From the NCBI RefSeq assembly GCF_964355755.1, contig NC_092680.1:1984001-2048000 (forward strand): a stretch of DNA of 64,000 nt, read 5' to 3'. Shown in pieces: positions 12,771 through 64,000 of the stretch (within the stretch, counting starts at the first letter, position 1; each line of letters opens with the position of its first letter). The notes under the pieces were generated by a model. The model was not told the DNA's origin, made no database searches, and was given only the letters and a program-made list of their open reading frames with translations. This DNA comes from Antedon mediterranea (Eukaryota > Animalia > Echinodermata). A program made the translations under genes and the position numbers.

Positions 12771-24021
<11,251 letters not shown>

Positions 24022-31017: not shown

Positions 31018-34000
31018 ATGCTACTAAAAGCGGCAGTTTCGGTTGCCGTTTTACTTTGTTTAGCTGGGCCTACTGCTAAAGCAGACAGGTAAGTCTTATT
31101 ATCTTATAATGTTAGTTGTAGTTGCTAAGACCTAAGTTAAGTAAGCTCCATCCCAAGCAAGAGGCTCACACAGGACACAGGCGGTCTTTACGCCTCCGCA
31201 GTAGGTAGGCCTGGGAAATATTGTAGGAGGTAATTGTTACCATGTTGTTGTGTGAAGTAAATATCTTATGTCCGGATTTTAAGTCCTAAGCCTTGCACTT
31301 TTTTTAATTACAGTTAAAAGTAACAGTTAAAAGTAAAGTACAGATTTGTTTTTTCACATTATATTCATATTTTTTTCATGTGTGTCAGGGGCGGATCCAA
31401 GGGGACCCCCTTTCCCCCACCCGCCTTTCCTTATTTTCACAAATTGTAACGCAAAAGATGGAACATCAAATTAAGCTCACCCCTTCATTTAACCATTTTT
31501 AGGCCCTGCTCGTTCGTTCATAAAACAATTATTTTGCTTTATAAATAATCATTTTTAAATTGAATATGTAAGTAAATTGGGGTTTTTTGAATGTACATAA
31601 ACTGTTCATTATTTTTTAATATGGTTTTTATTCAGCTTTATGTCAAATTATGTATTAATAATATAAAATTAACAACTGTACAATATTAATAATTTTGATT
31701 TATGCTAACAACCTTAAAAATATGTTAATTATTTAACTAAGGTTATACTTGTTATAAATAACAAACAGATAATTAATATATTGATAAATTAAAATATGTA
31801 CATAGACAATTAATTATGATTCTACATAAATATTTATATAAATTAAGAATATATAAATTAAAATTGTAAAGCCAATGCTAAATTTTATAGAACCATCAAA
31901 TAATAAAGGTGAGCACAAACATGAAGATATTGTATTAATTAACATTCAACCTCTCTGACTGTTCTGCAATGTGAAGCCAATCTAAATCTCTGTCCACACT
32001 ATCAAACTAGTTTGACAAAAAGTGTGGTGTGCCAAAAATATGGTAGTGATATAACATCGTGTCTATATATGGGCACATCACATTTTGTTGTCACATAAAG
32101 TTTGATAGTGTAGACAGAGCTTAAGATTAGGCCACTGCAGTTTTTATGGTGCATTAATAATACTGTACACCTGCTTTGTGGTAACATGATTTCTAAGGTC
32201 CAGTGTTTAATCCTGACCAGTGCAGGCTCTTCCATTCTCAAGCCTCAGATGAGACTTTACTTATAAGCATGTGAATTATAGATTCCATCTTGTGTAATTG
32301 GCAAGTTTTGTGTTATCAGTTTTGTGTAATTTGTTTTTTATATTTTAAAATAAAATCCTTTATTCACTACTGTACGTCCACCTGTTTTTTCTGCTTTAAC
32401 AACCTTGTGTTTGATCCACTTGTTAAGCCTAAAGTTAACCAAACCACTTTGTTAAATTGTGTTTACATTTTCATCACAAAGATCTACACACAGGACTTTG
32501 TTATAATAATCTATTTGACAAATGTTTTTGCTGTAAAAGTTTTCTATAAGCTTATTGTAATTTCAAACAAAAACCAAAATTGTAAAGAGGATAATCATAA
32601 TTGTTACATATTAACGCCACAAAAGTAATATTTGCTTTGGAAAGGCCAAATCCTTGAAAAGAATTTAAGATAAGAAGATAACACCTGATAACACACACAA
32701 GAGTGGACAGGAGAATGGTCTGGCTTATCCCGAGTAAACAGGATTACACTGGCTACTTGTGGTCAAATATTATTTATTGACTGGTTTATCATTCAAAAGT
32801 TATGTATTATTATCATACAGTACTTTAATTTTTTGAGTAACTTTCCAGCCGTACTGTCTGTGAATAGGTCTTTGAAAATGTATAAGTATTTAAATAAGTG
32901 TAGACACTAAAGAGGATAAACAAATTAAAGTAGCTGTTTTTAATCTTTTGAATAGTCAGAAGGGCACCTCTTCTTTCAAGTACTGGCTCTGTTGATTGGC
33001 GATACCATAATAATTTCTGTCTGGGTTCAAACCTCTGCCAAGACCTCTTACAGTAAAATATGTACAATATTCCTCATAACAAAAGTTACAGTACATGCAG
33101 GTGAACCCTTTCTGGCTCCCGAACTACTAAGTTGGTTGTTCTGACATATGACTGAGTATGTACAACCTCCTATGTTTTACGTATAGTCACACATTCTGGA
33201 CAGTGGCGTAACTGGAGCATGAGCAGTTTAATGCAACTACCCAGCGTTGGAGGGCCCCTTAAGAGTTCTAAACCAGGGGCCCCAGAGCTCAAGGGGCCCC
33301 AGAGCATGAGCAGTTCAATGCAACTACCCAGCATTGAAGGGCCCCTTAGGAGTGCTAAACCAGGGACCTTTGCCCTGTGTGTTACCCTGCTGGTTTTGGA
33401 TCTGACAAGGTCATCAATCCCAAATATCTCCTGTTAATAACATAATAAATAAATAACCAATTAACGTAGTTTACCTTAAAGGCAAACAACCAACATTCTT
33501 TTTTCTGATTTAAAGATATGTTCAGGCCATATTAGCATACAACGCTGATTTTTATATTAAAAAAAAATCTTGATTTACATTTTTTTTCAATACTTTGTGT
33601 TACAATGTTATACGGCCCCGTGGAAGAACACCTTTCTGGCGAACGAGTTTTTTTCGTTGCATAAATAAAGAATTTATTATTATTATAGCATAAAACAAAC
33701 ATTAAAAACTTTTCTAAAAATTTTAAATTGTTTTCTAAATTATTTTATTTTTTATACTTGTACGTGTTTGTAATACAGGTATCAATGACATACAGATTAT
33801 ATACCAGTAATTAGTTTATAATCCCACTATTCTCTGTTTTAAATTGTACTTCTACAGTATGATAATTTATTTATTTTAACTGTTGATTTAATAAAAGAGG
33901 AACCTTGCTTCTGATTAAAAGAAATCCTACAGAATTGTTTTACAAAGGTCACTGACCTCAATCCTATTGACATTGTCTTGTTGTTTGATTTTAATTAACA

Positions 34001-37000
34001 ATTTAAGAATTAGAGAGATACAAGTTTTATAACTGTTCTTGACCCATAAGGCCTGGCAAAATTTTAATATAAAATTTGCTTGTGGGATTTACTCAAATTG
34101 CTTTTAACAAATTAGTTTGGTATCTGAAATCTGGCATGTCCTGGTTCATTGAAACTTTGTATGGTCAAATAAAATACATTTAACAGATTTAATTAAATAA
34201 AACTTTTGAATTTTAGTAAACTATAAGTAGTAGACTGTAGTACAAAATTAGTCCAGGTTTGGGAAGAGGGGTAAAAAAGTGTGATGTGCCCAAATATGGT
34301 AGTGGTATGCCCAAATATGGCAGTGATATGACATCATCATCATGTCCATATATGGGCACATAAAATTTGATAACAGACCAAGCTTTATAGGCCTACAGTA
34401 CAGTAGCTCAGGGTGGTCGTAAAACATGCATTTGTGGGTAGCTTATACTTGAAGGTAGTCAGGTAATACTAAAGTGTTATTATTTTGTCCCTCCAGTTCA
34501 GCAAACAACTACTTGATCATGGCTCCAAAAGTGATGGTCGCTGAGACGACAGAGAACGTCTGCATCCAATTAATGAACATGACCGGACCAATGTACCTCT
34601 CTGTGAAACTGATGGATGGTGAAACAGTGTTGAAAAGGATTCCATTGTATTTCATGGAATTTCCTTTTGTTTGTCTGCCAATTGAGGTAGTTTTTGTTGG
34701 CAGTTGTTTGATGATTAGTTTTTGTATTGGTACACAGTGGCGGATCCAGGATTTTGAAATAAGAGGGGAGTCCTGAGCTTAATTTGATGTTCTATCTTTT
34801 GCATTACAATTTGCTAAATTAGAGGGCCCCATGAATCTGCCCCTGTATAACAATATATTACAAAACAATAGTGTAGCATCAGGCTAAAAATATAAAAGTA
34901 TTATTACAACAATGAAAAAAATATTACATTCCAAAAACAATTACAAATATCACAGTTAAGTGAATTAATGTTAAAGAATAGGCCTGGAAACTAAGCCATT
35001 CACTAATATTGGATGTTGAGTAAACCTCACTTTTGTTTTCAGTAACTTCAAAAAATCTCTTTTAATACAAAAAATGTATCTTTTACCTGTCCAATGTAGG
35101 TTGATAGAAACTATATATTAAAGTTTGAAATAAGTGATGTTTAATTTATTTAGAATTGGTGTTTATTGTAACTTTTAGGTTCCCAAGGTAACACAAGTTG
35201 AAAGGTTTGAAGCAACGTTGTTGATATACGCTCATAATGACGTAGAGCCACTGTTTACAACAAGCAAAAAGATTTTTGTAGAGCCAAGGAATTCAAAGAC
35301 CTTTATACAAACAGATAAACCTATTTACAAGCCAGGACAGACAGGTTAGTTATTTAATATATTATAGGCATTTTAAAAGATTCTGAAGGCATTGCATAAG
35401 CCTAAAGCTCTGCCTACACTATCAAACTAGTTTGACAAAAAAAGTGTGATGTGCCCAAAGATGGTAGTGATATGACATCATTATGTCATCATATGGGAAT
35501 ATCACGTTTTTGTTGTCACATAAAGTTTGATAGTGTAGACAGAGATTTAGGCGTTAATAGGGTTATATTACATAAATATAAGTATTGTTGTTTATAACAT
35601 TTTAACCCAAAAAATTATGTTTATATTTTACAGTTAAGTTTCGTATTTTGACTATTGATCAGAATCTGCACCCTAAACTCGATGTGGTAAGTGTATGTTA
35701 TTGAATATATTGGAGTTAATGTTATTTCATGTTAAACCAAGATTTGTTATATAACACGTGATCAAGGATTATACCCAATTCGCCTTGGGTGTTTGAAGTT
35801 TTGCTATATCATCCTGCACTACTCCTCTAGTAGGCATCCCTGGGAATTTCACAATTCAGCTTTTTTTCTGTTTTTGTTTACTGAGGTAGACAAAAACAAT
35901 TGTCATATTCGATTGGGGACTTTCGTAGTCAACATAAAGATTCGTTGAGTACTTTTTGTATTTGAATGGTAAATTGTAAACGGATGTGCGTAACAGAAAA
36001 TCATTTGTATAGAAAACGTTAACAACGCAAGATTTTTCATTAAGAACAATCTCAACGCTCAAAATACTCTGTTAAATAAGTACTCAACGGTAAAGTCCCA
36101 ATCGAATACGACAAATGTCTTCATTCTTTCCACCATCTTTCCATTTCCACAACAAAAAAATAACCCTGGATTAATTGTATTAAAATGGTGCCACAAACTA
36201 ATAATAGAAACTTGGTTATACTGTAGACAATACAGGAACATAAGGAACATAACAGGAGGAAACAATTATAGGTGTAATGTTCTAGTAGAATGAGAACAGA
36301 GTCGTAATAAAAGGAAACAATATTAAATTTTCATAGGTGACCTTGTGAAAGAGTAATGATATACAAGCGCCATCCAAAGGTGAATCGTTTATCCTTCCTG
36401 GGAATCTTGGAAAAATGCCATTGTTTTTACGCTTCATTTATTCATGGCATTAATCATTCCTGGATGGTTTATAATGTCTGGTGGGACTTCTGCATGGTTT
36501 ATCAGTATTGATGCTTTTTAATAGTTCACCTACAGTAGGCCTATTATAATGGTTCTATAACTTAATAGCCGGCTTTCTGCTGCAAAATATTAACCATGTT
36601 TTTATCATCAACTTAGAGAATGTGGTACTGTACTAATAAATAGCTGCAACATGATAACCATGTTATAGCTATGACCTCGCAGTGACCCAATTAACCCAGG
36701 TCCTTTTTATGATGCAACTTGAATATATAGGATGGTTGAATTGTATACAGGTTTTTTTTAAATTTTGTTACTTATCTATACTGAGTAACCTCTTCAGTCA
36801 AAGACTGGTCTCCCAGAGGGCCCAGTTATTATCAGTGGCTGTGTGAGTACTAATACACCGGGGCAACCCCATACTCGTCTCGAAAGATATACTAGGTTCT
36901 TTAAAGTGCTCATGAGCTAGATGTGTGCACTGGATCTTATACATATAGTTCTTGTCTGAGAAGACTTGTTCTACCACCATAATCATGGAGCAGGTGAGCC

Positions 37001-40000
37001 TATGGCTACGTATAATTAAGGTTCCACTCACTCGTTTGAATTGTTTATTTCGTTATTAGTACAATACTGTAAATTTGAGTTGGTCTTCTGAAATTTTTAG
37101 ATTGAGAAAGTTTATATTGAGGCTCCTAATGGTGTGCGTCTAGCCCAGTGGATCAATGTTACGACCAAGGATGGACTAACTGAACTTGAATTTGAAACCA
37201 CATCAGAACCAATTCTAGGAACATGGAAAATCTACAGCGTTATTAACAACATTAAGACTATGCAGGAGTTTGATATTGATGAGTATGGTATGAAATAGTC
37301 TTGTTTGTTCTTATAATGATTCTAAAGCTCTGTCTACACTATCAAATTTTATGTGACAAAAATATGTGATGTGCCCATATATGGAAATGATGTCATATTA
37401 CTACCATATATAGGTAGGCCTAAGTAAAAGTCATCCATTAGTTCATCCATAGCAGTTATATTGCTATTAGACTTTCTCCTTTCACTTCCATTGTATTTCT
37501 ATTTGGCAATTATTAGGCTTTATTTGTTCTTTATTGCAGTTCTTCCAAAGTTTGAAGTTAAGATAACGTCACCGTCTTTTATACTAGTAAACGAGACCAA
37601 CTTTAATGTCAAAGTTTGTGGAAGGTATGTATGTGTCTATGTCATGCCTAGCTTACCCGGATAAACAGACAATACTGTTTTGTTATCTTACTAAAAACAA
37701 TACCTGTCCCATAGCAAGTACCTCGAGTACACTGGCCCGACCAGTACAATCCCGGTATTTTTATACTCCATTACCCCTGCCCCAATCAAACAAATTCTGC
37801 TACAGCTAGTAGTGTAGGTTGTATTGTGAAGTGGCTTTCATCTATCTTTATAGTTGTCTTAATAAAGTTTTTAAAACTTTCTTAGATATGTCTAAAATGT
37901 ATACAGTATACCACCTTGGTAAATTAAATCATAAATTTGTATTGGGTATAAATAAAGATACAGCACAGTATGTACATTTTTACCACAAAATCATGCACTT
38001 ATCACTGATAGGTATTTACTATTATTTAACTAAATTACAGAGTGCTGATAAGATAGATAGATACTATATAGTATATTGTCAAGTATTACAAGATAATCTA
38101 CTTGACTTTGTTAGAAAGTAGGGCAATATAAGTAGGTACAGATTATATAGCTAATCTGAAATTAGAGCTAAGCTTAAGACTATTGTGATAAAGTTCTGAA
38201 GTATTGTAGTTACCCGACTGTAAGAAGATTAGTATTAATATATACTATTATAGAACCATACTTGAACTCCTATTTTTATCCCATTCACTACATATTTAGA
38301 TACAATTTCACATACAGGACTATGTTTTATATGGGATTGCCCCATATTTATTTATTTGATAAGGTGGCTAGATTATACTTTAGTGTATATTTAAAAGCTT
38401 TGATGTAGTCTAAAAAGTTTTTTTTTTAAATTTCATTGGTGTTTTAAGAAAATCACATTTTTTTACCAGTTCAACCATAAGCTGTAGGAAGTATGTCATA
38501 TATCTTTACAGGAAGGATGTTGGTGTGCCGTAAATGTTATTCTATGAACTACTGAATTGTATAACCGCGCATTTACAATAACAAAACTGTTAATCGCTAA
38601 CCAAAATTGCGTTATCATAGCAGCATTTATTTTTTCTGTCTCATCCCAAGGTTATCAACAGTTTGAACAAGACAATTACTGTTGTAGATTTACTTATGGT
38701 TAAACCAGGGTTTCAATAAACAACAGCAATGTACCCATAGCCCTTGTTAGCAGTACAGGTTACTATAACCATGGAGAAAATATTCCTCCATGGTATAACC
38801 ATGGGGTATATACCCCTTTCCGACACACCTATTCAGAGGACATTTTCCTTTGAAAAGGGCCCAGTATGTATGTATGAGGATACATTGTTAAGATGTTCAG
38901 TAAATGAGCTACATTTTTATACAATAGTCAGAACCCAAACAAATTTGGTATAGAAAGCACAGTGTATGAGTGATAGGTAAGGATCTAGTGAAGATCCCAT
39001 TTCTATCAATTGTTGTTGTTGTTGTACATTAACAGAGTTGTTCTCTATATTTATACAGATATACTTATGGACAACCTGTTTTTGGGAATATTCGAGCAGA
39101 TGTTACTGTGAAAGATGAAAACAGTCGTTACTATGCAAAACGTAGACAGTTTAAAACATTAAGTGAGGTAAGGTTTTCACTGTCTCGCTTGACTTACTAT
39201 GGCATTTTCTGCCAAAAATACAAACAAAGTGTAGGCCAAGAAAGTTTGACATGAATTTCCATATGGAATAAGGCTCTGTCTACAGAATGAAACTAGTTTG
39301 ACCAAAAATGTATGATGTGCCCAAATATGGTAGTGATATGCCCAAATATGGTAGTGATATGACATCATCATGTTCATATATGGACACATCACATTTTGTT
39401 GGCACATAAAGTTTAATAGTGTAGACAGAGCTTAATAACATCTCAATCCGGTTACCTTTATTGAAGTCGTTAATCAGTAATATCAGTTTTTTTTTTTAGG
39501 AATCTGATTCAAATGGCTGTGCAGTATTTCTGATCAATGCTGAACTATTTAATCTACCATCAAAGGATCATAGTTTTTACGATGCAAAAATTCATGTTGT
39601 TGGATACGTTATGGAACAAGGAACAGGTAATAATAAAGGCCATGAAACGAATTAGTATTTTTAAAATGTTTATACAACTTTATATCATGATTTTCTTTAT
39701 AATATTTTTTTTCAAAGTGTCTTACGACAACAGAAAATTATTTGTTCTCTATAAGATCCCTGCAATATTGTATTATAACAATGTAAATATATATTGTTGA
39801 ATACATTTTTAATAATTAAATGAATGAATAGACTTCTAAATGTATGAATGGATTAAATCCGCTAATGCAATTCTTTTAATATCTAAATATTTTTTTTTTT
39901 AGGTATTGAATTAAGCGCCACAGATTTTACTGGGATTGTAACAATGACTCCATTTCAATTAAAAATTAATGCTCTGGACTCTTTCAAGCCAGGGTTGCCA

Positions 40001-43000
40001 TTTTTTGGAAAAGTAAGCAAACCTTTAGTTCCTTGCACATTTACATGGTCATGTCACAAGGTCGTAGTCGATTTTTACTTGTCGACAGATATGTGAACAT
40101 TTAGATTAAGTCGACATGGTTGCCGTGAAAATCTAAAAGTCCCTACTGATTCTCTAAAGACCGAAAGATGACAGGAACGATTTCATTTCAATCACATGCT
40201 TCATTGCTTAGCGGTTTGAGATTGACTGCAAAATTAGACCTGTATTTACTGTTTTGTTAAATATTTTGTTAGAGCAAGAAATGCTGTTTTATCAACAGAT
40301 CATTGTGTTAACATTTGGTCTTGGTAAGAATGTTGTAATTGTACTCAATTTACCATTTCTTCTATAGATTTTTGTGACAAGGCCTGATGGTGAAATTTCT
40401 CCAAACACTGAGGTTTTGGTGACTGCTCGTGCCGACTCTCAGAACATCTTTAATGAAAATATGACATCGGACAGCAATGGATTAATTGAATTCAGTCTGT
40501 CAGACATCTCCATTAGAACTTCAACTATAAACATTTATGTAAGCCTAATTTATTATTTTGAATTACTAGCCAAACTTGATCAAATGACAAACTTACTAAA
40601 ACTCTGTCTACACTATCAAATTGTATGCGACAAATAAATTTGATGTGCCCATATATGGACACGATGATGTCATATAACTGCCATATTTATAGCACTACCT
40701 TTTTTGGTCAAACTAGTTTGATAGTGTAGACATGGCTTAAGAAACACCAATGTTCTTTTGAACATTATAAAATGCCTAATAAATGCAATTGTAAATGTGT
40801 TGTTTTCAGGCACAAATTCTTGGCTACAGCCCAGAAGAAGCCTGCTATGGTTGGTCTAATTGTGACTATACTGTTACGGATCCAAAGACAAGTCTCTATG
40901 CTATAGCTTCATTTTCTCCAAGTGGTAGTTTTGTGCAGTTACAGCCAATACTGAAATCCATAAATGCAGGAGATAGCCAAGAACTAACAATTAGGTATAC
41001 CTGGGACGAGGCAAAGGACGGCAATCCAGAGGATGTTCATTTTCGATTCTTAGTAAGTTTTAGTTGTCTGTATTATAATTAGCCAAATCCGTTGTACTCC
41101 ATCTCCTAACCACCATTCATGCTAAGATACTAAACTATCCACTATGTTGATATCCTTCTTCCAAAGAGTAGCATTAAAATTGATAAATCCAAAGGCAAAT
41201 TACTGAAAAACTAACAGTGCTGTGGGTATCAGTGGCTAGATAGCAATAGAGATACAACATAAAATAAGCACAAATACATACTGTATGTATCTTGTATGGC
41301 AGCTTAAATGCACACTTATCAAACTTAGCAGAGAACCATAATTTGGTCAATTTGACATTACTTAAGACAAATAATTGGCGATGGTTTTATTATATAAATC
41401 ATGGATCGAAAAATGCCTTTTTAATACTTCACAGTTTATGTCCCGAGGAAACATTCTTGGAACGGAACTCACTGAGGTTTTGGAAAGTGCTTCCCTTCCG
41501 ACAGTTGATAGCCAACCAGCTCCACCAGATGAGACACAAGAGGCGGTTGAAGAAATTGAAGCTGAACTTCAGGATGAAGATTTCGAAGTAGTCTTAGAGG
41601 TTGAGGAAATTGATGAGCCTTTTGGTAATTTAATTTTTTTTTATCATTATTTTTAAATTCTCTAAACAAAACCATGTTTAATTCTGAATTTCTCATTTAT
41701 TATCAGTCCATATAGTAATTCTCTCAATTTTTGCAAACAGCTTTATTATATTTATTCTGAAGAAAGCCATTTTGTAATTCATTATTTTATCTTTTGATTA
41801 ATAGAAATATCGTAAACCAGACCTTTTGTTTAATTCAGGACAAAAATATCAGTTGATTCGTAAACTTTCAGTAATTTTTTTTTCTCGTCAGATTCCAACT
41901 ATTCTTCAAGCTATCCATTTTACCCTGCAATCCCAACTATCCCGATTGCTGAACCAGGCAAGATGTTTGTAGTTCGCAAACAATTTGAAGTGACACAGGA
42001 GATGGCGCCAATCACACGTATTCTGATCTACTACATCCGATTGGACGGCGAGGTCGTAGCAGACAGTATTGAGGTCAATGTGGATAATCAATTTGAGAAT
42101 AAGGTACTTTTTTCAATCTTTTCAATTATTTAAAATATAATATTAAGTTAAGCAGTGGTTTTGTAATCAATGGTTGTGGGTTATGCATGTCACTTTGGTG
42201 ACTGGTTCACTGGCATGACAAAAAAAGTGGGATGTGACCAAATATGGTAGTGATATGCTTAAATATGGTAGTGGTATGCTTAAATATGGTAGTGATGTGA
42301 CATCATCATGTCCATATGGGCACATCACATTTTTTGTCACAAAGTTGGATAGTGTAGACAAGGCTTCAGATGATAAAGACATCAGGAAAGTCACTAAAGC
42401 ATGCAGAATATGCAGTTGGCTTTTTTTTTTTTATTGGATATGAGATTATTATTATATTATATAATAACATTTATTTTGTTTACATTTACTTATCTAATTC
42501 ATGTAGATATTTATATCAAATGTAAGCATTTAATATATAGAATTTATATATTTTGTAAAATAATACATTTTTAAATTTCGATTCAGGTTGATATCAGTTT
42601 TACTGAAGGCCAGAAGAAACCGGGAGAAGCAACAAAGTTAAAGATTGTATCAGCGGCTGACTCGCTGTGCGCTATCGGAGTTGTTGATAAAAGTGTCCAT
42701 TTATTGCGTTCAAATAACCAATTGACTCCACAGAAGGTAAATATTTTTAATTAATAAAGTTTTAATTTGAATTAGGAGTTTACTACAAAAGTAATTTTTT
42801 GGATCAAACACACTCCCATAATAAGGCAGCTAGTAATCAGCACAAAGTTGTGTCTTGATCTAACTGGTACCCATTTTATACACCTGGGTGGAAACAGGCA
42901 AATGTAAGTAAAGTGTCTTGCCTAAGGATACAAGCAATGCGGCGACAGTTGGATTCGAAACCACGATCTCACGAACAGTAATCCAACGTCCAACACACTG

Positions 43001-45917: not shown

Positions 45918-45949
<32 letters not shown>

Positions 45950-51684: not shown

Positions 51685-51812
51685 GTTATTTCACTCGCAT
51701 TATTTTATATTTACATAAATACAAATTTTTAAAAAATTAACAAAATTGAACAAACCCCTCTATACTAATATTTGACCCCTGATTTAAATATATTTTTGTG
51801 TTTTAATGATAG

Positions 51813-53729
51813 TACAACAAGGTCGTGAATTCTTTGAAATTGATTGTGATGAGGAGATTATAGAAACTAAAGTATTAGATTTAGAAATTGGAAAACTTAT
51901 AAAATTTCCTGTTGAACAACCAGTAGAAGAGATACCTTTTGGACAAATACCCATTGATGGTAAGTCATCAAAATTGAAAACAACAAGTTTCTTTAAGGAA
52001 ACTTTATGTGACGAAAAATGTGATGTGCCCATATATGGACATGATGATGTCATATCATTACCATATTTGGGCATATCACTACCATATTTGGGCACATCAC
52101 ACTTATTCTGTACAGTAGATAATATGCATTTTCTTATAAACACAGTTTACCTATCTGTGCCTAGACTATCAGTTGCTGTACTGCTGATAAAAAAAAGTGT
52201 AGGCCTACCACAAAAAAAGTGTTATTTATGTATTAAACTATTTTACTTTGCTTATTTTGGAATATAGCATTCCTAAACGAATGTCCAGATGGCAAGACAT
52301 TTGCAGATGGTGTTAAGAAATGTGTCGGTAGGTAAACTAAAGTTTTTAATTATTTATTTTGTAGATTTACGCAACATTGAAATCACCACATAGACTTTGA
52401 GCATAGCAAGTCTTTTAGCTCTGTCTACACTATCAAACTAGTTTGACAAAAAATGTGTGAAGTGCCTATTATGGTAGTAATATGCTAAATATGGTAGTGA
52501 TATGGCATCATCATGTCCATATATGAGCCCATCACATTTTTTTGTCACATACAGTTTGATAGTAGACAGACATAATGTGATTTTCTCTTCCAGTGCAGTT
52601 AATAAGTTAATTGTATGTTTTTCTTTTTTAGATATTAATGAATGTGAACAACCTGATATATGTCCTAAGAAAAAGGTCTGCATCAATACAAATGGCAGCT
52701 ACAAATGTAAAAAAGGTAACTACATACTTGACACTTACAGTAATACAATATGTTTTTATTTTTATAGCTATATTTTCATCCTCTAATTGGTTTATACACT
52801 GTTGTATGTGAAAGAATAAAAATAAAATTATTAAATTTATAATGAAATGTAACTGTTGTTTGTTTAAATTAGATTCTGTTTACTGCTATTTGCAATACAC
52901 AATAGATGAATAAATGTTTTTATATTTGTTCCTAGCTTGTCAGCCTGGTTTCAAAAGAGAAGGAAAACGTTGTGTTGGTGAGTAAACACTTAATAACTGT
53001 GCTGTGACTGAAGGCAGAATGGTAGTAGACTTGGTACAGGGTAGTCACTATAACTAAACCACCCTTGAAAATGTATTTTCATAAATGTTTATATATAGTT
53101 ACCTCCGCCAAGGTAGTCGATCGCGTGTGTCTGTCTGTTCTCAAAAAGTTGTTGCCAGACCTTACCAAATTGAAACCACAGATAGATATATATATTTTAG
53201 ATCCGATCTGGTAATGAGCAGTCTTAACATAATGTTAGGTTCATAGTTAAAATTTTAAATATAAAATATTATTAAGAATAAAAAATAATAATAATAAAAT
53301 GTTACAAAAATAATCCAGATGATGAAAAAAAAAAGATCCTAAGTAGGAATTGAACCAGTCCAACTGTGTAAGGCTGATCATAACTGATGCTGGTGGTTGT
53401 TGGTTGCAATTTGAATGTTATTATACCCGAATAAAAAAATAAACAAATAAATACTGATATTACTTTTACGCTCTGTCTACACTATCAAACTAGTTTGCCA
53501 AAAAAGGTGTGACGTGCCAAAATATGGTAGTGATATGACATTATCATGTCCATATGTATAGGAACATTTTTTGGTCACATAAAGTTTGATAGTGTAAACA
53601 GAGCTTTAAACGTGTTTAACAAAATGTTTGTTTTAGATATTAATGAATGTGAGGTAAACCCAAACACATGTCCAGAAGGGTTCATTTGTAAGAACATCAA
53701 AGGAGACAGGCTGTGTGAACAGGCACCAG
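51813..53729 (+). CDS. TEP C-terminal extension 1: acidic linker (51813-51959) and calcium-binding EGF-like exons (52268-52327, 52632-52715, 52936-52977, 53637-53729)
   Basis: Phase-1 exons continue the TEP frame without a stop: CPDGKTFADGVKKCV-DINECEQPDICPKKKVCINTNGSYKCKK-ACQPGFKREGKRCV-DINECEVNPNTCPEGFICKNIKGDRLC. Confidence 0.85.
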
Positions 53730-54067
53730 GTATGTCCAATAGTAACTTTAGTATTATTATTCAGGTATGACCAGATGCTTCACTTACTATCTTATATTAT
53801 ATATATACTTTATCAACAACATAATATCACCCTCTATAAGTAGATCCTTTTATATCAGAGTTTTTGATTTGTGCCAACTAACGACACACCAAGTGACTCA
53901 CCAAACTGGTTTCGAGGGTGTCGAAAATCAAAAGCTCCCTGTTCACAGATTCTAGTGCTTTTATTCAGCATTTCAAGAGATGATACTTCTTTCTTCCATG
54001 AAATTATTTGGACTATTGCACTCATACACATTTATTGTATATTATTAACTAGGTAATTTCCTTACAG

Positions 54068-54802
54068 AGATTTGTAATTTGGACAAAGAAGCAGGGCATT
54101 GCCGTGCAAAATTTCTTCGCTATTATTGGAACAAAAACACCAAACAATGTGAACAGTTTACTTATGGAGGTTGTGACGGAAATAAAAACAACTTCAAAAC
54201 CATTGAAAGATGTGAAGATAAATGCAGACCAGAGCCACCAGGTCTATATACATAATATACTTGCACTGATAAAGGGCTAGTGTTGCCCGAAAGCTATGCT
54301 AATATTTCTGGCTGTTTTACTTTATCGTTTTTATTTAGCTTTTTGCTTATTTTATTTTGCATCTCCATTGAGATCCAGCCATTGATACCCACAACATTGT
54401 CATTTTCAGTAATTTTCCTTTGAATTTATAATATAAACAATCTACATGATAAGAAACATAATGTAAATTAGAAAATGTCCATGCATTGAAAGAATACACG
54501 AGTTCCAGCCAGCATGCTTACTTTTACTTGTTTCTTAAACAGCTGTACTAAACGCTAAAGTAACAGCTTAAATAGGATGGGTGGTTGGCCAATGCTTTAC
54601 TTAAACTTATCTTTCTCACAATTTGTAGCCAATTGTCTGTTAGAAGTAGAAACTGGTTTGTGTCTAGCCGCATTCAACATGTTCTATTACGATTCAGCCA
54701 CAAAGCAATGCAAAAGCTTTACATATGGTGGATGTGGAGGTAACGGCAATAGATTTAACACATACAAGGATTGCCAAGATTCTTGTTTTGCAAGGAAAAA
54801 AG
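54068..54802 (+). CDS. Two Kunitz/BPTI domain exons (54068-54241, 54629-54802)
   Basis: ICNLDKEAGHCRAKFLRYYWNKNTKQCEQFTYGGCDGNKNNFKTIERCEDKC and NCLLEVETGLCLAAFNMFYYDSATKQCKSFTYGGCGGNGNRFNTYKDCQDSC. Each has 6 Cys with the FxYGGCxGNxNxF signature and is a 174-nt phase 1-1 exon. Confidence 0.93.
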
Positions 54803-54982
54803 GTAAAACAAATCTTAATTGAACTTTTGAGAAATGAAATCATATATTAATATAAAATTTGTATGTTAAATACTAAAAATATGTGTTCTTAAAAAAAACT
54901 TTACATATATAACTGCATTCCGTTTACCAGTAATTTAGTACACAGACTGACAAGTACATAACTCACACTTTTAAACTTTCAG

Positions 54983-57900
54983 ACAATACAGAAAAGCCCG
55001 GAACTTGTCCAGTTAGTGAAGTAGGCATCTGTGTCGAGCACTGCTCCGTGGATTCAGATTGTGAAGGGGTTGCAAAGTGTTGTAGCAATGGATGTGGACA
55101 TCTTTGTACAAATCCAGGTACTAACACATCTCTTAAGCTCTGTCTACACTATCAAACTTTATGGACAAAAAAATGTGATGTGCCCATATATGGACATGAT
55201 GATGTCATATCCCCACCATATTTGGACATATCACTACCATATTTGGACATATCACTACCATATTTGGACATATCACTACCATATTTGGACATATCACTAC
55301 CATATTTGGACATATCACTACCATATTTGGCACATCACTATACAATAATACAATAATAAGTATTTATGTTGTTTATTTTATATTATATAAATTATATTTT
55401 TTGATCGAAAACTTTATATTGATTATTGATTAGTAGCCGTTACTTGTGAAGATGGATTTGAACATGTTGCTGGGGTTTGTGTTGGTAAGTTCATGTAATT
55501 TATATATTGTGTTTGTTTTACTCAAAAGAAAAATATCCCATCCATGTTAAGTTACTGTTCATTAAAAACTGATTATGTTGTTCGTAATTAAACCTAAAAA
55601 ATGAATAGTATATTGTTTTTGATTTTGTTTTTTTTCATATTTGTTATATTTTAATATATTTCTTTGTTATAGACATTAATGAATGTGAAACCGTTGATCA
55701 AGCCTGCCCTCAAGATACTGGCTGTATTAACAATGAAGGAAGTTATACTTGTATTGGAGGCAATCCATTTGTAGGACCTATAATACCAAAATTACCTGCA
55801 ATCATTGAGCCTGTTGGACCTGTCCTAATAAAAGAAGGTTTGTCATAATTTATAGAGTATGTCACAACGATAGAGGGCGCTGGATGGTTGCTAGCCAACC
55901 AAAAAATGCGTTCAGCGCTACTATGTTGATAAACAGTAAAGATCTGTATTTCTATCAAATTATGTATCTTGATTTGTTTAACTTAAACGGTAGTTGAAGA
56001 AAAAATAGATTATTAAAAACAAATATTTAGTGATCTTTTGAAAATTTAGTTTGGTTTTTATTAAAAATTATTAAGTTTTAAAATGACTACTTCAATAAGC
56101 ATATTCCAAACCAACCATTGGTAACTCAGGCAGGCTGAACGCATTTTTGGTTGCGCTAGCAACCACGCAGCGCCACCTACCGTCGTGACATCAGCACCGT
56201 GATACTCTATAGTGAAATCAAAATACAATTAATTTCTTTTATGTTTTGACAAAGATATAAAATATCACAAATAAATCTTTTAAACAAAAAATGTAAAAAT
56301 AATTTTAATTTATAGGAAGTTGTCCGGGGGTTTCAGCAGACACAGTTGGTATTTGTGTTGACATGTGCAGTGGAGATGAAGATTGTGATGGTGTTCAGAT
56401 ATGCTGCAGTAATGGCTGTGGTCATGCATGTATGCAACCAGGTTAGTGTCAATTAAATAACATAGTAAGTGATCTTCTGGACACAATATATATTTCATCA
56501 TCAGTAACAAATTTGTAAAAAAAACGCACCTTTCCCAAATTAGTAATGTTCACTGATATTGTATTGTAAAATGTTATTTTATTTTATCATCTTCTGTTTT
56601 TTTTTTTTAGAAAATGTTTGTCCACCATTGTGTTTAATGTACTGTGAGTTTGGAAATGTTTTAGATGAAAATAACTGCCCCATTTGTGAGTGTAAACCAG
56701 ACCCAAGTCCTGTAATTACAGGTAATATATCTATAGAATCTATTTTTGTAATTAGTAATTATTTCTGAATAAATTTAATGGTACATTTTATATTTCTGTG
56801 GGGTTTTCTTTACAGATTCTTGTCCAACAGGATTTGAGAATGTAGATGGAGAATGTGTTGGTAAATATATTTAAGACTATTTTGTAAAACTTGCTAAATT
56901 CGTATTTTGTACTGTTTGTTTGATTTTATTTAAAATGTATTTAGATAAACATGGGCCTAGGAACCATTCCAAAGAGATTTTGTGTAGAATCAGTTTGATA
57001 TCCATTACTTTATTTTATCAATAATAATTTGCTGTATATTTTTAACATTTAAAAGAATGTTTCCAACACATTATTAATTAATGTTGTGATATTGATTGAT
57101 AGATATTGATGAATGTCAAACATTTGATCAAGCCTGCCCTCAAGATGGTGGCTGTATTAACACTGAAGGAAGTTTTGAGTGTGTCGGAGGCAATCCATTT
57201 GTTGACCCAATCGAACCCATAAAACCAATTGTACCTGTAATTTTTAAAAGAGGTAAGTGGTAGTTTAATAATATATTGTAAATATACAAAATGATTGGTG
57301 AACCCACAAAGAGTTCTAGTTGTTACTAGAATGTTTTACATTATATGGTTAATATTTGTATAATAGTTTCTTGATTTCTTGACTGCATCACTACATACAT
57401 CCTCTTAAAAATCCTTTTTTCTAATTGGTTTGAAGGATGGTGTCCATCACCACAAAATACATATGGCATTTGTGCTGAAATGTGCAGTGGAGATGGAGAT
57501 TGTGATGGTGCTAAGAAATGCTGCAGTAATAGCTGTGGTCATGCATGTGTACAACCAGGTTAGTAGATTTGATTATAGGCACTTTACCAAACAAGACGGG
57601 AAGCCACAGGATGATACTCATGAATAATTCATGCATGAGCTTAAGTGGGTGGTGCTTAGCGTGAAATTCTGTCGTCTTAACTTTTTGAGGATGATAAAGT
57701 TGCCATTTTCGACTGATTTTATGCTCTGGCAAACACAGAATCTCCTTCATCCTCCCCTAACCCGTCCTGTTTCGTAAATCCTTAATATATTATTCAGTAA
57801 TTTATTGTGATGTATGTGTTCCACAAAGAACATTGGTATTTATACGTTTATGCTTAATTGTCATAGTTTCATATACACATTTATTCAGTTATTTATGACA

Positions 57901-60900
57901 ACAACTGGGGCCCGCACTAGAAGCAATAGCTTGTCTCATGAGGGCCCCTACAATACAAATATGCAGAAATACATAAAAAAAAAAAAAAACTGTATAAAAC
58001 AATAAAAAATAATATAATAAATGTGATACATAGTAATAAAACTATTTGTAAATTAAATGTTATTTGATCGTCTTCTGTTTATTTTCATTGTACAGAATTT
58101 TGTCTGCCAGTTTTGTGTTCAGCCTACTGTGAGTTTGGAAATGTTTTCAATGAAGATAACTGCCGCACTTGTGAGTGTAAACCAGACCCAAGTCCTGTAA
58201 TTACAGGTAATATATCTATAGTATTTATGTTAGTAATTATTACTGGGTAAAGTTGGGGTGTGGTGGTGTGGTGAAGTTGTCCAGTGGTTTCATCAGACAC
58301 AGTTGGTATTTGTGCCGAAATGTGCAGTGGAGATAAAGATTGTTTTGGTGTTCAGATATGCTGCAGTAATGGCTGTGGTCACTCATGTATGCAACCAGGT
58401 TAGTGATCTTCTGGACACAATACATAATTCATCATCAATAACAAATTTGTAAAAAACGTACCTTTCCCAAAATAGTAATGTTCAAATGCATTAATATATA
58501 ATTTGAAATGTTCCAAATAGGTAAACTCCTTTGGTATCTTTATATTCATACAATACCAAGCTTTAACATGGCTAAAGCTCTGTCTACACTATCAAACTAG
58601 TTTGACAAAAAGAGTGTGATTAGTGTCAATTTAAATAACATAAATTGAGTTTTAAAAGTTCTTTTAAAAATTATTATTTGTAAAATTAATTAATCATCTT
58701 CTGTTTATTTTCAATGTAGAACCAGTTTGTCCCCCAGTGTGTGAAATCTTTTGTGAGTTTGGAAATGTTTTAGATGAAAATAACTGCCCCACTTGTGAGT
58801 GTAAACCAGACCCAAGTATCATTGGTGAGTTTTTAAATTTTTTTAAAGAATAATTTGATGTAAGTTAAATGTTAATTCTTTTAATATTTATATTTTGTGT
58901 GAATTTTCAAAAATTGTTACTGTTTTTTTTTTATTTTTCAGTACAAGAGTGTCCACCGTTGTGTTTAATGTACTGTGAGTTTGGAAATGTTTTAGATGAA
59001 AATAACTGCCCCATTTGTGAATGTAAACCAGACCCAAGTCCTGTATTTACAGGTAAAGTGTTTTATGCCTTTTTACAGCAGTCACTCTAGATACAGAAGA
59101 CTTAAGCATTTTAATGCTATATTTTATATTTCTGTTGTTTTCTTACAGATTCTTGTCCAACAGGATTTGAGAATGTAGATGGAGAATGTGTTGGTAAATA
59201 TTGTTTAATACATTGTTTTTTAAATGTATCTTTTTGTTTGTATTTTCTCACAGTACGGTTTTATTGATTTCATAATAACCTGTTATTGTAATTTACAATA
59301 TATTTTAAAATGGTAAAAAAATATATTTTGCGATATTGATTGATAGATATTGATGAATGTCAAACATTTGATCAAGCCTGCCCTCAAGATGGTGGCTGTA
59401 TTAACACTGAAGGAAGTTTTGAGTGTGTCGGAGGCAATCCATTTGTTGACCCAATCGAACCTATAAAACCAATTGTACATGTCATAAAAGAAGGTGAGTG
59501 GTAGTTTAAAAAGGTTTGAAACAATTATAAGATAATGGTGGGTGATCCCATACGATAGGTTTAATTGTTTTTATTTAAGAATTCTCAGAGAATACCGCAA
59601 TGTCATATTTGACCTTTAACACTATCAAACTAGTTTCACAAAAAAAGTGTGATGTGCCCAAATATAGTAGTGATATGCTTAAATATGGTAGTGATATGAC
59701 ATCATCATGTCCATATATGGGCACATCACATAAAGTTAGATAGTGTAGACAGAGCTAAAGTCATCACAGAGTTTCTGAAAAAACAAGAGTTGCTAACAAA
59801 ATGTCATTTTTAACTTGTTTTTTTTAGGAAGTTGTCCAATGGTTTCAACAGACACAGTTGGTATTTGTGCCGAAATGTGCAGTGGAGATGAAGATTGTTT
59901 TGGTGTTCAGAAATGCTGCAGTAATGGCTGTGGTCATGCATGTGTACAACCAGGTTAGTCATTTTAATTAGTTAGTGTCAATTTAATAAGATATTGAGTA
60001 ACCTTTCCCATTTACAAAAGTTAGAAAAATGAAAATGAGATATTATGAATGCATGGCAAAATAATAGTGCGCTATTATAAACATTTATAAATAATAAACC
60101 GTGCCGGCATCATAACAGAATTTTAGTTGCGGTTCACAAAATTCACAATTTCCATTTAAAATAATTGTAATGGTATATTTATATACTATTTTCTATTTAT
60201 TTTTCTATTGTAGTAGCAGTTTGTCCACCACTTTGCAAGATGGCCTGTTCTTTTGGAAATGTTTTAGATGAAAATAATTGTCCAATTTGTGAATGTAAAC
60301 CAAACCCAAGTACTGTTGGTGAGTTTTTGTTTTATTTATTTGTTATGTATATATTTTTTTTAATGATTTAATTAGTATTTTAAAATCCATGGTAAAATTT
60401 ATATTTGTGGCTGTATTAACACTGAAGGAAGTTTTGAGTGTGTCGGAAGCAATCCAAAAAATTTATAAATAATAAACCGTGCCGGCATTATAACAAAATT
60501 TTAGTTGCAGTCCACAAAATTCACAATTTCCATTTAAAATAATTGTAATGGTATATTTATATACTATTTTCTATTTATTTTTCTATTGTAGTAGCAGTTT
60601 GTCCACCACTTTGCAAGATGGCCTGTCCTTTTGGAAATGTTTTAGATGAAAATAACTGCCCCATTTGTGAATGTAAACCAGACCCAAGTCCTGTAATTAC
60701 AGGTAAAGTGTTTTATGCCTTTTTACAGCAGTCACTCTAGATACAGAAGACTTAAGCATTTTAATGCTATATTTTATATTTCTGTTGTTTTCTTACAGAT
60801 TCTTGTCCAACAGGATTTGAGAATGTAGATGGAGAATGTGTTGGTAAATATTGTTTAATACATTGTTTTTTAAATGTATCTTTTTGTTTGTATTTTCTCA

Positions 60901-61968
60901 CAGTACGGTTTTATTGATTTCATAATAACCTGTTATTGTAATTTACAATATATTTTAAAATGGTAAAAAAATATATTTTGCGATATTGATTGATAGATAT
61001 TGATGAATGTCAAACATTTGATCAAGCCTGCCCTCAAGATGGTGGCTGTATTAACACTGAAGGAAGTTTTGAGTGTGTCGGAGGCAATCCATTTGTTGAC
61101 CCAATCGAACCCATAAAACCAATTGTACATGTCATAAAAGAAGGTGAGTGGTAGTTTAAAAAGGTTTGAAACAATTATAAGATAATGGTGGGTGATCCCA
61201 TACGATAGGTTTAATTGTTTTTATTTAAGAATTCTCAGAGAATACCGCAATGTCATATTTGACCTTTAACACTATCAAACTAGTTTCACAAAAAAAGTGT
61301 GATGTGCCCAAATATAGTAGTGATATGCTTAAATATGGTAGTGATATGACATCATCATGTCCATATATGGGCACATCACATAAAGTTAGATAGTGTAGAC
61401 AGAGCTAAAGTCATCAAAGAGTTTCTGAAAAAACAAGAGTTGCTAACAAAATGTCATTTTTAACTTGTTTTTTTTAGGAAGTTGTCCAATGGTTTCATCA
61501 GACACAGTTGGTATTTGTGCCGAAATGTGTAGTGGAGATGAAGATTGTTTTGGTGTTCAGAAATGCTGCAGTAATGGCTGTGGTCATGCATGTGTACAAC
61601 CAGGTTAGTCATTTTAATTAGTTAGTGTCAATTTAATAAGATATTGAGTAACCTTTCCCATTTACAAAAGTTAGAAAAATGAAAATGAGATATTATGAAT
61701 GCATGGCAAAATAATAGTGCGCTATTATAAAAATTTATAAATAATAAATCGTGCCGGCATTATAACAAAATTTTAGTTGCAGTCCACAAAATTCACAATT
61801 TCCATTTAAAATAATTGTAATGGTATATTTATATACTATTTTCTATTTATTTTTCTATTGTAGTAGCAGTTTGTCCACCACTTTGCAAGATGGCCTGTCC
61901 TTTTGGAAATGTTTTAGATGAAAATAATTGTCCAATTTGTGAATGTAAACCAAACCCAAGTACTGTTG
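54983..61968 (+). CDS. Array of WAP exons (54983-55117, 56316-56441, 57436-57558, 59828-59953, 61478-61603), antistasin exons (56611-56721, 58096-58206, 58720-58824, 58942-59052, 60214-60318, 60592-60702, 61864-61968) and EGF-like exons (55434-55484+55673-55837, 56816-56860+57103-57252, 59149-59193+59347-59493, 60799-60843+60997-61143)
   Basis: WAP: KPGTCP...[28 protein letters not shown] (8 Cys). Antistasin: [28 protein letters not shown]-like: [40 protein letters not shown]. All exon lengths are multiples of 3 and phase 1-1. Confidence 0.88.
55851..56210. mobile_element. Inverted-repeat non-autonomous element with TA ends
   Basis: tatagagtat...gcgctggatggttgctagccaaccaaaaaatgcgttcagc is mirrored by gctgaacgcatttttggttgcgctagcaaccacgcagcgc...atactctata. 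Confidence 0.7.
58273..58398 (+). pseudogene. Orphan WAP exon lacking a splice acceptor
   Basis: Intact [41 protein letters not shown] with a donor GTTAGT. It is preceded by ...gtggtgtggt instead of the pyrimidine tract and AG seen in the paralogous exons. Confidence 0.6.
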
Positions 61969-62059
61969 GTGAGTTTTTGTTTTATTTATTTGTTATGTAT
62001 ATATTTTTTTTAATGATTTAATTAGTATTTTAAAATCCATGGTAAAATTTATATTTGTG
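58980..62059 (+). repeat. Recent ~1.43-kb intragenic tandem duplication (about 58980-60409 vs 60630-62059, offset 1650 bp)
   Basis: Exons and introns are nearly identical, including the same MITE copy at about 59617 and 61267. Confidence 0.92.
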
Positions 62060-62513
62060 TTTTTGTTTGATATCTATAAACATACACAAATTATATACAA
62101 TAAAGATAATAAGCTAATACTATTTTTTCCATTTAAATCTTACTGCTTATAAAGATTAATATTAAAACTTAATTGTTTTCATAATATAGTCCTGATATTC
62201 CCGACAAACTCCCAGGCCAATCAGCTGTAAATGAATACCTGGTTAAAAATACTAGGGAGAAGAAGGCTTCGTGGAAAGGAACTGGCCACCCTAAAGCGTA
62301 GTTCCCACTAGAGACGCAACACAAGGACGTAACGCAATGTAAGTTAGTTGACCAATCACAAGGGATTAATTATTCGAACTGTCGCTTGTCATTGGTCAAC
62401 ACTCTTGCGTTACATCCTAGTGGGTACCAAGCTTAACACATAAACCCTAACAGCTCATTCCCCTACATTCAGAATGAACACAAGACTCACCTTTACCCTT
62501 TTTTTAAATATAG

Positions 62514-64000
62514 TGTTAACTCACTGTCAAGAAAGAAACAGACAAGCAGAGATAGATATAAAAGCACGGGGAGGAAGACCACTTCTTGGATCGTTTGTTC
62601 CCAGATGTGATGAATATGGTGAATATGTTAAAGCACAGTGCCAAAGTAATGGTTTCTGTTTCTGTGTTAATGATGTCGGTGAAATAATGGTAGAAACAGT
62701 ACAAAGCCAGAGAGGTGTAATGCCAGTTTGTGATGGACCTGTTAATGGTGAGTTTGCTTCAGATCAGTGGCATTTCAAAGTGAAAACAGCCAAGTAAAAA
62801 CGGCCAAATTAAAACGGCTAAATGAAAACGGCCAAGTGAAAACGGCCAAGTGAAAACAACCAAATGGAAACAATCAAGTGAAAACGGCCAAGTCAAAACG
62901 GCCAAGTCAAAACGGCCAAGTCAAAACGGCCAAGTGGATAGCTTAGCATAATACATTTACAATCTTCTGTTTTTGTAGAAATAGGTTGTCCACCAAACTT
63001 CTTTTAAATAAAGTAAATTTCTGATGCAAACCGGATCCTAATAATGTATTTGTAAACACATTTTTTTCATTGATAGAACCAACTCACTGTCAACAAAAAC
63101 GCAAAGAATATCTGGATACTGGTTTAATTGGAGGTTTAGAACCACAGTGTGAAGATGATGGTTCCTATGTTGTCAGTCGATGTCATGGTGGAACAGGATT
63201 CTGTTTCTGTGTAGATGAAATCGGTGAAATTATTGAAGGAACTACAATGGATGTCAGAGGTGTTAAGGCTGACTGTTCACAGTATATAAATGTTGAGGAA
63301 ATAGGTAAATATTGTTAAAGCATTTTACTTTGAGTAATTGACAATTTGCTATAGTTACTGTACACAAAAACATGCGAGGACAAATTAAAATCCGTTTTTA
63401 TTTTCACTGAATTGTTATCAATAGAACTAACTCACTGTCAACAAAAACGCAAAGAATATCTTGATGCTGGTTTAATTGGAGGTTTAGAACCACAGTGTGG
63501 AGATGATGGTTCCTATGTTGTCAGTAGATGTCATGGTGGAACAGGATTCTGTTTCTGTGTTGATGAAATCGGTGAAATTATTGAAGGAACTACAATGGAT
63601 GTCAGAGGAGTTAAGGCTGACTGTTCACAGTATATAAATGTTGAGGAAATAGGTAAATATTGTTAAAGCGTTTTACTTTGAGTAATTGACAATTTGCTAT
63701 AGTTACTGTACACAAAAAACATCCGAGGACAAATTATAATCCGTTTTTATTTTCACTGAATTGTTATCAATAGAACTTATAACTCACTGTCAACAAAAAC
63801 GCAAAGAATATCTTGATGCTGGTTTAATTGGAGGTTTAGAGCCGCAGTGTGAAGATGATGGTTCCTATGTTGTCAGTAGATGTCATGGTGGAACAGGATT
63901 CTGTTTCTGTGTTGATGAAATCGGTGAAATTATTGAAGGAACTACAATGGATGTCAGAGGTGTTAAGGCTGACTGTTCACAGTATATAAATGTTGAGGAA
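62514..64000 (+). CDS. Thyroglobulin type-1 domain exons (62514-62747, 63077-63304, 63425-63652, 63774 to window end); the gene continues beyond the window
   Basis: THCQ...FVPRCDEYGEYVKAQCQSNGFCFCVNDVGE and THCQQKRK...EPQCEDDGSYVVSRCHGGTGFCFCVDEIGE match the thyroglobulin-1 pattern (CFCV variant of CWCV). The last three are near-identical tandem copies with a period of about 348 bp. Confidence 0.9.
62779..62937 (+). repeat. 14-bp tandem repeat GTSAAAACGGCCAA (~11 units)
   Basis: Direct reading of the intron after the first thyroglobulin exon. Confidence 0.85.

Follow-up and report, generated by a model that had tools for sequence, protein, structure and literature searches.

In the 64,000-nucleotide stretch of the Antedon mediterranea genome analyzed here (the window; NC_092680.1, positions 1,984,001 to 2,048,000, forward strand), a gene on the + strand that starts at position 31018 and exceeds the end of the window encodes a giant thioester protein (TEP). 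An alpha-2-macroglobulin (A2M) core and an array of EGF-like, Kunitz, WAP, antistasin and thyroglobulin-1 (TY1) modules are supported as parts of one spliced gene. The classes of TEPs are told apart by the part following the macroglobulin domain MG8, which is nothing, a C345C domain, a GPI signal or a Kazal domain. Judged from alignments and a fold model, the array is inserted here between MG8 and an inherited C345C/NTR-type end domain. With a probability of about 50%, the product would be a matrix-localized A2M protease trap with tethered inhibitors.

The reading frame rebuilt from the window sequence between 31018 and 64000 comprises 61 exons, 8,412 nt and 2,804 amino acids without a stop codon, with an AG at 60 of 60 internal acceptors and a GT at 60 of 60 donors. 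A previous interpretation of the DNA letters alone, the sequence-only reading, had claimed that about 31 phase-1 exons follow the VYDYYDT motif without a stop. This is indeed the case: all 31 exons downstream of position 51684 are entered in phase 1, the 30 complete ones are also left in phase 1, and 1,290 stop-free residues follow the motif within the window. The receptor-binding domain had been thought to end at 51684, which needs correction. On the 3,324-residue database model of the protein, P0130, the Pfam domain A2M_recep extends to residue 1522 and so passes residue 1515, where exons 30 and 31 meet. This indicates that MG8 ends only in exon 31, which also contains the linker, so that the first exon assigned to the array is not part of another gene. 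The gene contains the following features.

31018 to 31088, + strand: exon 1, with the ATG and, judged by eye, a hydrophobic signal-peptide-like leader.
34497 to 41052, + strand: exons 2 to 11, MG1 to MG4 and the start of MG5 (Pfam MG2, MG3 and MG4 on P0130).
41435 to 42103, + strand: exons 12 and 13, acidic MG5 loop, with a phase-1 intron (41625 to 41891) inside.
43055 to 43213, + strand: exon 15, furin-type RKKR motif (residues 719 to 722), predicted beta/alpha chain cut.
43702 to 44100, + strand: exons 16 and 17, bait region of about 30 residues.
47236 to 49022, + strand: exons 23 to 26, thioester domain (TED) with GCGEQ (Cys1033) and His at the catalytic position.
50907 to 51959, + strand: exons 29 to 31, MG8/receptor-binding domain, finished in exon 31 (51813 to 51959), then an acidic linker.
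52268 to 53729, + strand: exons 32 to 35, two-cysteine lead module and EGF-Ca units 1 and 2.
54068 to 54802, + strand: exons 36 and 37, Kunitz 1 (P1 Arg) and Kunitz 2 (P1 Leu).
54983 to 58206, + strand: exons 38 to 46, WAP1, EGF3, WAP2, antistasin 1, EGF4, WAP3 and antistasin 2.
58273 to 58398, + strand: WAP-coding copy without a splice acceptor, likely a pseudo-exon.
58720 to 61968, + strand: exons 47 to 57, antistasin 3 to 7, EGF5 and EGF6, WAP4 and WAP5, including a 1,430-bp duplication.
62514 to 64000, + strand: exons 58 to 61, TY1 domains 1 to 4 (2 to 4 being a 348-bp tandem repeat); the gene exceeds the window.

P0130 agrees with the rebuilt model at every aligned column with zero mismatches, and the five gaps of 1 or 2 residues are all located at splice junctions. 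The frame had been said to leave the window, and P0130 goes on for about 520 residues with one TY1, two antistasin, four EGF and one WAP module, followed by a 125-residue end domain. A total of 1,798 residues come after MG8, with the NTR-type domain being the last. The previous count of five WAP domains was right for the spliceable copies in the window; the sixth copy at 58273 to 58398 no longer has an acceptor AG and does not appear in the database models P0130 and P0188. The duplicate blocks 58980 to 60409 and 60630 to 62059 are 1,430 bp long and 99.2% identical, and the tandem joint of the 348-bp TY1 repeat is also present in DNA contigs. From these sequences, the expansion of the array by both events looks recent. 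DNA-contig depth over the duplication was about twice that of the neighbors (566 versus 271 to 311; 85 versus 40 to 41), which is a hint only, the runs being possibly from the assembly's own sample. Tandem NAGNAG acceptors are located at 55434/55437, 60214/60217, 60592/60595 and 61864/61867; P0130 takes the upstream one at all four, as do the reads of run X1 at 55434 and 61864.

The transcript evidence comes from this run X1. “RNA?” was the guess of the tool, and it is the spliced contig that shows the cDNA content. The run was used solely for contig bridging, and contig depths were not used for expression ranking; variants of antistasin exons had depths of 188 and 503 versus 56 for the 5' contig. 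X1 differs from the window at many sites, which indicates another individual, and 10 of the 15 coding differences examined between its contig 1 and the window are silent. Contig 1 is spliced and 5,913 nt long, with seven listed pieces on exons 23, 26, 27, 29, 36, 37 and 40, and its offsets are those of the model in all seven, given the upstream acceptor at 55434. It bridges the junctions 51684/51813 and 53729/54068 at the exact offsets, both of which the sequence-only reading had predicted, and joins the core to both Kunitz domains and WAP1. The length of contig 1 implies a 5' untranslated region of about 132 nt and an end inside WAP2. With a threshold of 31 letters on the short side, X1 also supports the joints 62747/63077 (35 letters) and TY1 to TY1 (38 letters). 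The third junction predicted, 61968/62514, was seen in X1 as a GT..AG joint with 28 letters, which is below this threshold, as is the joint 61603/61864 with 30 letters; both were found in X1 only.

By the sequence features tested, the gene product is an A2M and not C3, CPAMD8 or CD109. The Pfam domains of the core follow each other on P0130 in the order MG2, MG3, MG4, A2M_BRD, A2M, TED and A2M_recep. The thioester motif PTGCGEQ is intact at Cys1033, and the aligned catalytic position is occupied by His as in CD109, while human A2M has Asn there; His is also present at this position in ordinary invertebrate A2Ms. Cleavage at RKKR is predicted to yield a beta chain of 79 kDa and an alpha chain of more than 227 kDa. 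The core is 42% identical to that of a Ptychodera A2M, and the E-values of the TED were 1e-45 to CD109/A2M versus 1e-23 or weaker to C3. No anaphylatoxin domain (ANATO) was found in P0130 by Pfam at E 0.001.

Comparison with the crinoid Anneissia japonica gave identities of 37% for the bait, 76% for TED, 74% for MG8 and 75% for the NTR domain, and of 89% for the lead module with EGF1 and EGF2, 87% for WAP1, and 62% and 78% for the Kunitz domains. Without the cysteines, 67 of 76 positions in the lead module with EGF1 and EGF2 and 30 of 35 in WAP1 are identical. Between the two crinoids, conservation is thus higher in the proximal tail than in the core. The divergence of the bait is consistent with bait-triggered protease trapping.

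Single exons of the array were above the curated Pfam cut-offs for Kunitz (2 of 2), antistasin (7 of 7) and TY1 (4 of 4), in agreement with the two, seven and at least four domains claimed before, and also for WAP (6 of 6 stretches). EGF_CA exceeded its cut-off in three of the four exons tested among the six four-cysteine exons; most EGF units are permuted, with a two-cysteine exon preceding a four-cysteine exon. The Kunitz domains matched with E-values of 1e-20 and 3e-18 and have the loops GHC-R-AKF and GLC-L-AAF. Kunitz 1 aligns without gaps to TFPI, boophilin and SmCI, and Antedon and Anneissia share the P1 residues Arg and Leu. Both loops look canonical by sequence, with a predicted inhibitory P1.

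The best solved relatives of the WAPs were anosmin-1 and waprins. Compared with elafin, the WAPs of P0130 have a four-residue gap and no elafin inhibitory loop. According to PMC11408880, WAP antiprotease activity is tied to the 6/8 spacing, and cross-class inhibition was nevertheless reported for WFDC2. The tail is strongly acidic with a pI of 4.3. The missing elafin-type loop and the acidic tail count against an antiprotease or cationic antimicrobial role of the WAPs, which the sequence-only reading had regarded as inhibitory or antimicrobial. In the antistasin-type units, the position which we take to be P1 is occupied by Leu, Lys, Ser or Glu. The best single-domain matches of TY1 were saxiphilin and then p41; to our knowledge, there is no sequence rule that predicts inhibition by thyroglobulin-1 domains.

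The end domain, which is located outside the window and known from P0130, aligns to the terminal parts of A2Ms from nemerteans, annelids, molluscs, arthropods and other echinoderms, with four invariant cysteines in 20 sequences, and the hemichordate A2M P0060 from Ptychodera ends in a shorter version of it. Its predicted structure had a pLDDT of 89, and ranks 1 to 13 in a Foldseek search were C345C-bearing complement chains (C3/C4/C5) or the NTR domain of PCOLCE1, with a TM of about 0.5 and a best E of 6e-4. A profile of the end-domain sequences had no match to solved sequences; only Pfam on the members, with NTR in 3 of the 20, and the fold search gave one. Since the end domain is homologous to the ends of many invertebrate A2Ms, the array would be an insertion and not the terminal add-on assumed before. 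A C345C-fold end is common to many invertebrate A2Ms, so it is no mark of C3 only.

TED-bearing database proteins of 1,977 to 5,000 residues (n = 39, including P0130) were searched for this architecture. EGF, WAP, Kunitz, TY1, antistasin or TIL modules were present in 11 of the 39, which are nine other echinoderm proteins, one protein that stands beside Asterias in the tree, and the Antedon gene. None of these modules was found in the remaining 28 (21 CPAMD8-type, 7 others). An earlier homologue search covered proteins up to 2,000 residues and the best 120 of 3,016 matches. A HMMER search of all representatives revealed an A2M core in 1 of the best 150, the rest being dominated by Kunitz/EGF arrays. 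An apparent restriction of the tailed design to echinoderms, as judged from these sequences, is weakly tested.

According to the database models, each of the five echinoderm classes has tailed relatives, whose module sets differ by class: Kunitz, WAP, antistasin and TY1 in crinoids; Kunitz, up to 17 WAPs and TY1 in sea stars; WAP, TIL and TY1 in sea urchins; Kazal in a brittle star; and TY1 in all five classes. The claim that no characterized TEP is known to be built this way has to be divided: such models exist in all the classes, and no description of the architecture was found in the literature searched, most subscription journals being outside this search and unread proteome supplements possibly listing the proteins. 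The accessible parts of PMC9363628, PMC5155528 and PMC9759900 do not describe it. The automatic names of the relatives include fibrillin-1-like, SCO-spondin-like, zonadhesin-like or “uncharacterized.”

In a tree of 42 cores, no C3 included, the Antedon and Anneissia japonica genes are sisters (100/100, 75% identity), and the crinoid pair is sister to 12 eleutherozoan A2Ms within an echinoderm A2M clade of 14 rows (96/94). The 12 comprise nine tailed proteins (97/80) and three tailless ones including the sea star footprint protein Sfp9. The branch uniting all A2Ms is weak (82/69). A two-cysteine lead module follows the linker in seven of seven giant-tail proteins. The simplest reading of these sequences would be an EGF-bearing tail in the echinoderm ancestor with subsequent loss and remodeling. 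The MG5 loop is a second site with modules, namely WAP, TY1 and Kazal in Amphiura, TY1 in Holothuria and TIL in Diadema; in Antedon it is acidic, empty of modules and divided by the phase-1 intron. The annelid protein P0028 of Pseudopotamilla, named “complement C3-like,” groups with the A2Ms and has a cysteine-rich insert in the MG5 loop with TIL in its Pfam list, which suggests a possible independent use of this site outside echinoderms. In paralogues, Pro-rich repeats, Fz, VWC or FN3 stand in the place of the inhibitor modules. An Asterias paralogue (P0151, P0216), located on the same scaffold as the giant gene, has about 600 residues of 10-residue Pro/Asp repeats, followed by EGF and NTR domains.

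Invertebrate A2Ms with a C345C-like end (P0060; nemertean, annelid, mollusc and insect proteins) resemble the Antedon protein in the MG/bait/TED/MG8 core, GCGEQ, the His and the end domain, but their linker from MG8 to C345C is short and free of modules, while Antedon has about 1,670 residues of modules there. XP_033109473 of Anneissia (“fibrillin-1-like”) has the same five module types in different number and order. LOC117296122 of Asterias rubens, LOC757285 of S. purpuratus and LOC446192 of L. variegatus are like Antedon in core, lead module, EGF, WAP, mostly TY1, and the NTR-type end; the sea star giants differ by 9 to 17 WAPs and no antistasin, and the sea urchin giants by TIL, no Kunitz and a Ser/Thr-rich stalk. 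These four relatives are automatic gene models, for which no characterization was found in the literature searched. LOC446192 (P0129), whose low gene number suggests cloning long ago, is possibly ECM 18, a protein of the basal lamina; the searches gave no link. CPAMD8 likewise has an inhibitor-type module (Kazal) behind a TEP core but forms a separate clade (100/100), and its PF12248 and Kazal domains were not found in P0130. C3/C4/C5 share the terminal C345C/NTR fold, but their anaphylatoxin domain was not found in P0130. In CD109 and insect TEPs, little more than a GPI signal or a short tail follows MG8, which is not so in P0130. Trappin-2/pre-elafin is reportedly an inhibitor fixed covalently to the matrix by its cementoin anchor, and WFIKKN combines WAP, Kunitz and a terminal NTR domain in a single chain; both serve as working comparisons only, neither having a thioester core and the Antedon WAPs being without the elafin loop.

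Sfp9 belongs to the same echinoderm A2M clade as the Antedon gene but is tailless, ending 2 residues past MG8. Sfp9 and a sea urchin tube-foot A2M are extracellular and serve in material rather than blood (PMC9382459, PMC10057474), tailless relatives are adhesive components (PMC9382459, PMC10057474, PMC7037938), and echinoderm A2Ms and WAP/antistasin proteins were found in adhesive footprints (PMC9382459). Flores and Livingston reported Patiria skeletal proteins with three old LOC757285 fragments as best sea urchin matches (PMC5460417). Seven Patiria miniata skeletal peptides from this source were mapped against eight proteins. In the Asterias giant, the MG8 region was the best match of two PMI_006509 peptides (12 of 14 letters in one, 7 of 10 in the other), and the NTR domain was that of one PMI_026044 peptide (6 of 11 letters); three matched the Pro-rich-tailed paralogue and one was uninformative. 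Both ends of the sea star counterpart are therefore likely to exist as protein, at low abundance, in the skeletal matrix. The conserved proximal tail together with the skeletal counterpart favors a host matrix setting over delivery onto pathogens. The sequence-only reading had proposed an inhibitor cassette delivered by the thioester; the thioester is intact and of the His type, and pathogens as the target become less probable than the host matrix.

If the protein is a matrix-localized trap, furin would cut the chain at RKKR, a protease would cleave the fast-evolving bait, and the exposed thioester would bond covalently to the protease or to amines or hydroxyls of nearby matrix glycoproteins, as in A2M biology. 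The conserved acidic EGF-Ca, WAP and NTR parts of the tail may set the location by attaching to host matrix or mineral. The two Kunitz domains would block further nearby serine proteases; less surely, the antistasin-type loops and TY1 domains may do so with nearby serine and cysteine proteases. Symmetric phase-1 exons might have been shuffled and duplicated into two phase-1 introns of flexible linkers, the MG5 loop and the MG8-C345C linker, with each echinoderm class loading its own modules.

Several results weigh against this reading. A clearly canonical inhibitor loop is present in only 2 of about 30 tail modules. The elafin 6/8 spacing (C1-C2, C2-C3) occurs in none of the six WAPs of P0130, C2-C3 being 3 in all six, and one antistasin-type unit matched solved antistasin only partially (residues 32 to 58 or 88 to 111, E 0.055). 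Sea urchin relatives have no Kunitz domain, the seven giant-tail proteins are not monophyletic (3 changes), and the Antedon gene is co-orthologous with several eleutherozoan paralogues. No single RNA-type record reaches from the core to TY1, so that continuity from WAP2 to TY1 is that of the gene models. There are few skeletal peptides (2 per gene model, accounting for 0.06% of spectra; 7 mapped); they originate from another echinoderm class, and a skeleton can trap body-fluid proteins.

Disulfide-rich modules serve as spacers and binding units in papilin and WFIKKN. A structural matrix or adhesive scaffold, with acidic disulfide-rich modules as spacers or binders, thioester cross-links and a minor contribution of inhibition, is possible but less probable. 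The non-elafin WAPs with anosmin-1 and waprins as nearest solved relatives, the conservation of the proximal tail beyond the core, the paralogues with other modules in place of inhibitors, and the occurrence of related proteins in footprints and skeleton would fit such a scaffold. Against it stand the canonical Kunitz loops with conserved P1 residues, the repeated recruitment of unrelated inhibitor families, and the fast-evolving bait and intact thioester, which a working trap retains. A circulating coelomic-fluid opsonin, with the His-type thioester fixing the inhibitor cassette to microbes, wounds or clots, is unlikely. The CD109-like His would suit it, as would the C3-like fold of the end domain, the varied P1 residues and the recent internal duplications, and His at this position favors hydroxyl targets in C3-type proteins. 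The His is nevertheless not special among invertebrate A2Ms, no anaphylatoxin domain was found, the tail is acidic instead of cationic and proximally conserved instead of fast-evolving, and the sole protein-level evidence found is from skeleton.

Arguments for two adjacent genes, or for a mainly short A2M transcript, artificially merged in gene prediction or by misassembly, are the near-identical repeats in the tail, one ATTAAA-type hexamer at 52232 in intron 31, and the sea urchin relatives annotated as adjacent core and tail models (P0174 plus P0231, P0007 plus P0236, and old S. purpuratus models). Placed one behind the other, though, these halves match the fused proteins along their whole length, and a fused model is known from each of Anneissia, Asterias, Strongylocentrotus and Lytechinus, in addition to a 2,850-residue protein on a 10,452-nt record. 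With exon 31 completing MG8, the ancestral end domain located past the array and the unbroken 5,913-nt contig from another individual crossing the junctions, this explanation is very improbable.

No TEP paralogue was found in positions 1 to 31000 of the window. An isocitrate dehydrogenase gene at about 13500 to 23280 (+ strand; Pfam Iso_dh on one exon), presumably for the NAD-dependent alpha subunit, contains a 5.5-kb intron (about 13550 to 19119), which harbors in antisense a multi-exon gene at 14605 to 18143 (− strand) with a SAM domain at its end; its upstream exons, which had no Pfam match, we take to be CABIT/Themis-like. A 161-codon frame at 28749 to 29231 (− strand), which precedes the start codon of the A2M gene by about 1.8 kb and had a weak Pfam match only, resembles the C-terminal end of a LINE reverse-transcriptase frame. 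A MITE-like element of about 150 to 175 bp, with terminal inverted repeats of 27 to 28 bp and an internal short tandem unit, has 21 matches per end motif on the + strand of the window (for instance 49886 to 50059 and 53464 to 53610); it is present in many introns of the gene and had a very high depth in DNA runs. A second high-copy repeat (62200 to 62450) is located in the intron preceding TY1, and a short tandem satellite (62777 to 62935) after TY1.

The family to which the gene belongs adds a form of TEP in which shuffled modules, together up to about 2,000 residues long, lie between MG8 and C345C; this form was kept and varied in all five echinoderm classes behind misleading automatic names. 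If the protein is a matrix-localized trap, a single chain would unite a non-specific covalent trap with active-site inhibitors. More speculative, and rather doubtful, is that these proteins are undescribed echinoderm “inhibitor display platforms” with two exon-docking sites, filled in each class with different inhibitor families (Kunitz, antistasin, TIL, Kazal, TY1), the array of which would be riveted to collagenous or skeletal matrix upon proteolysis, and that LOC446192 may be ECM 18. Such a platform, if true, would be a candidate for the control of matrix turnover during autotomy and regeneration and in mutable collagenous tissue. Sea urchin embryos, for which relatives and knock-down methods exist, permit direct testing.

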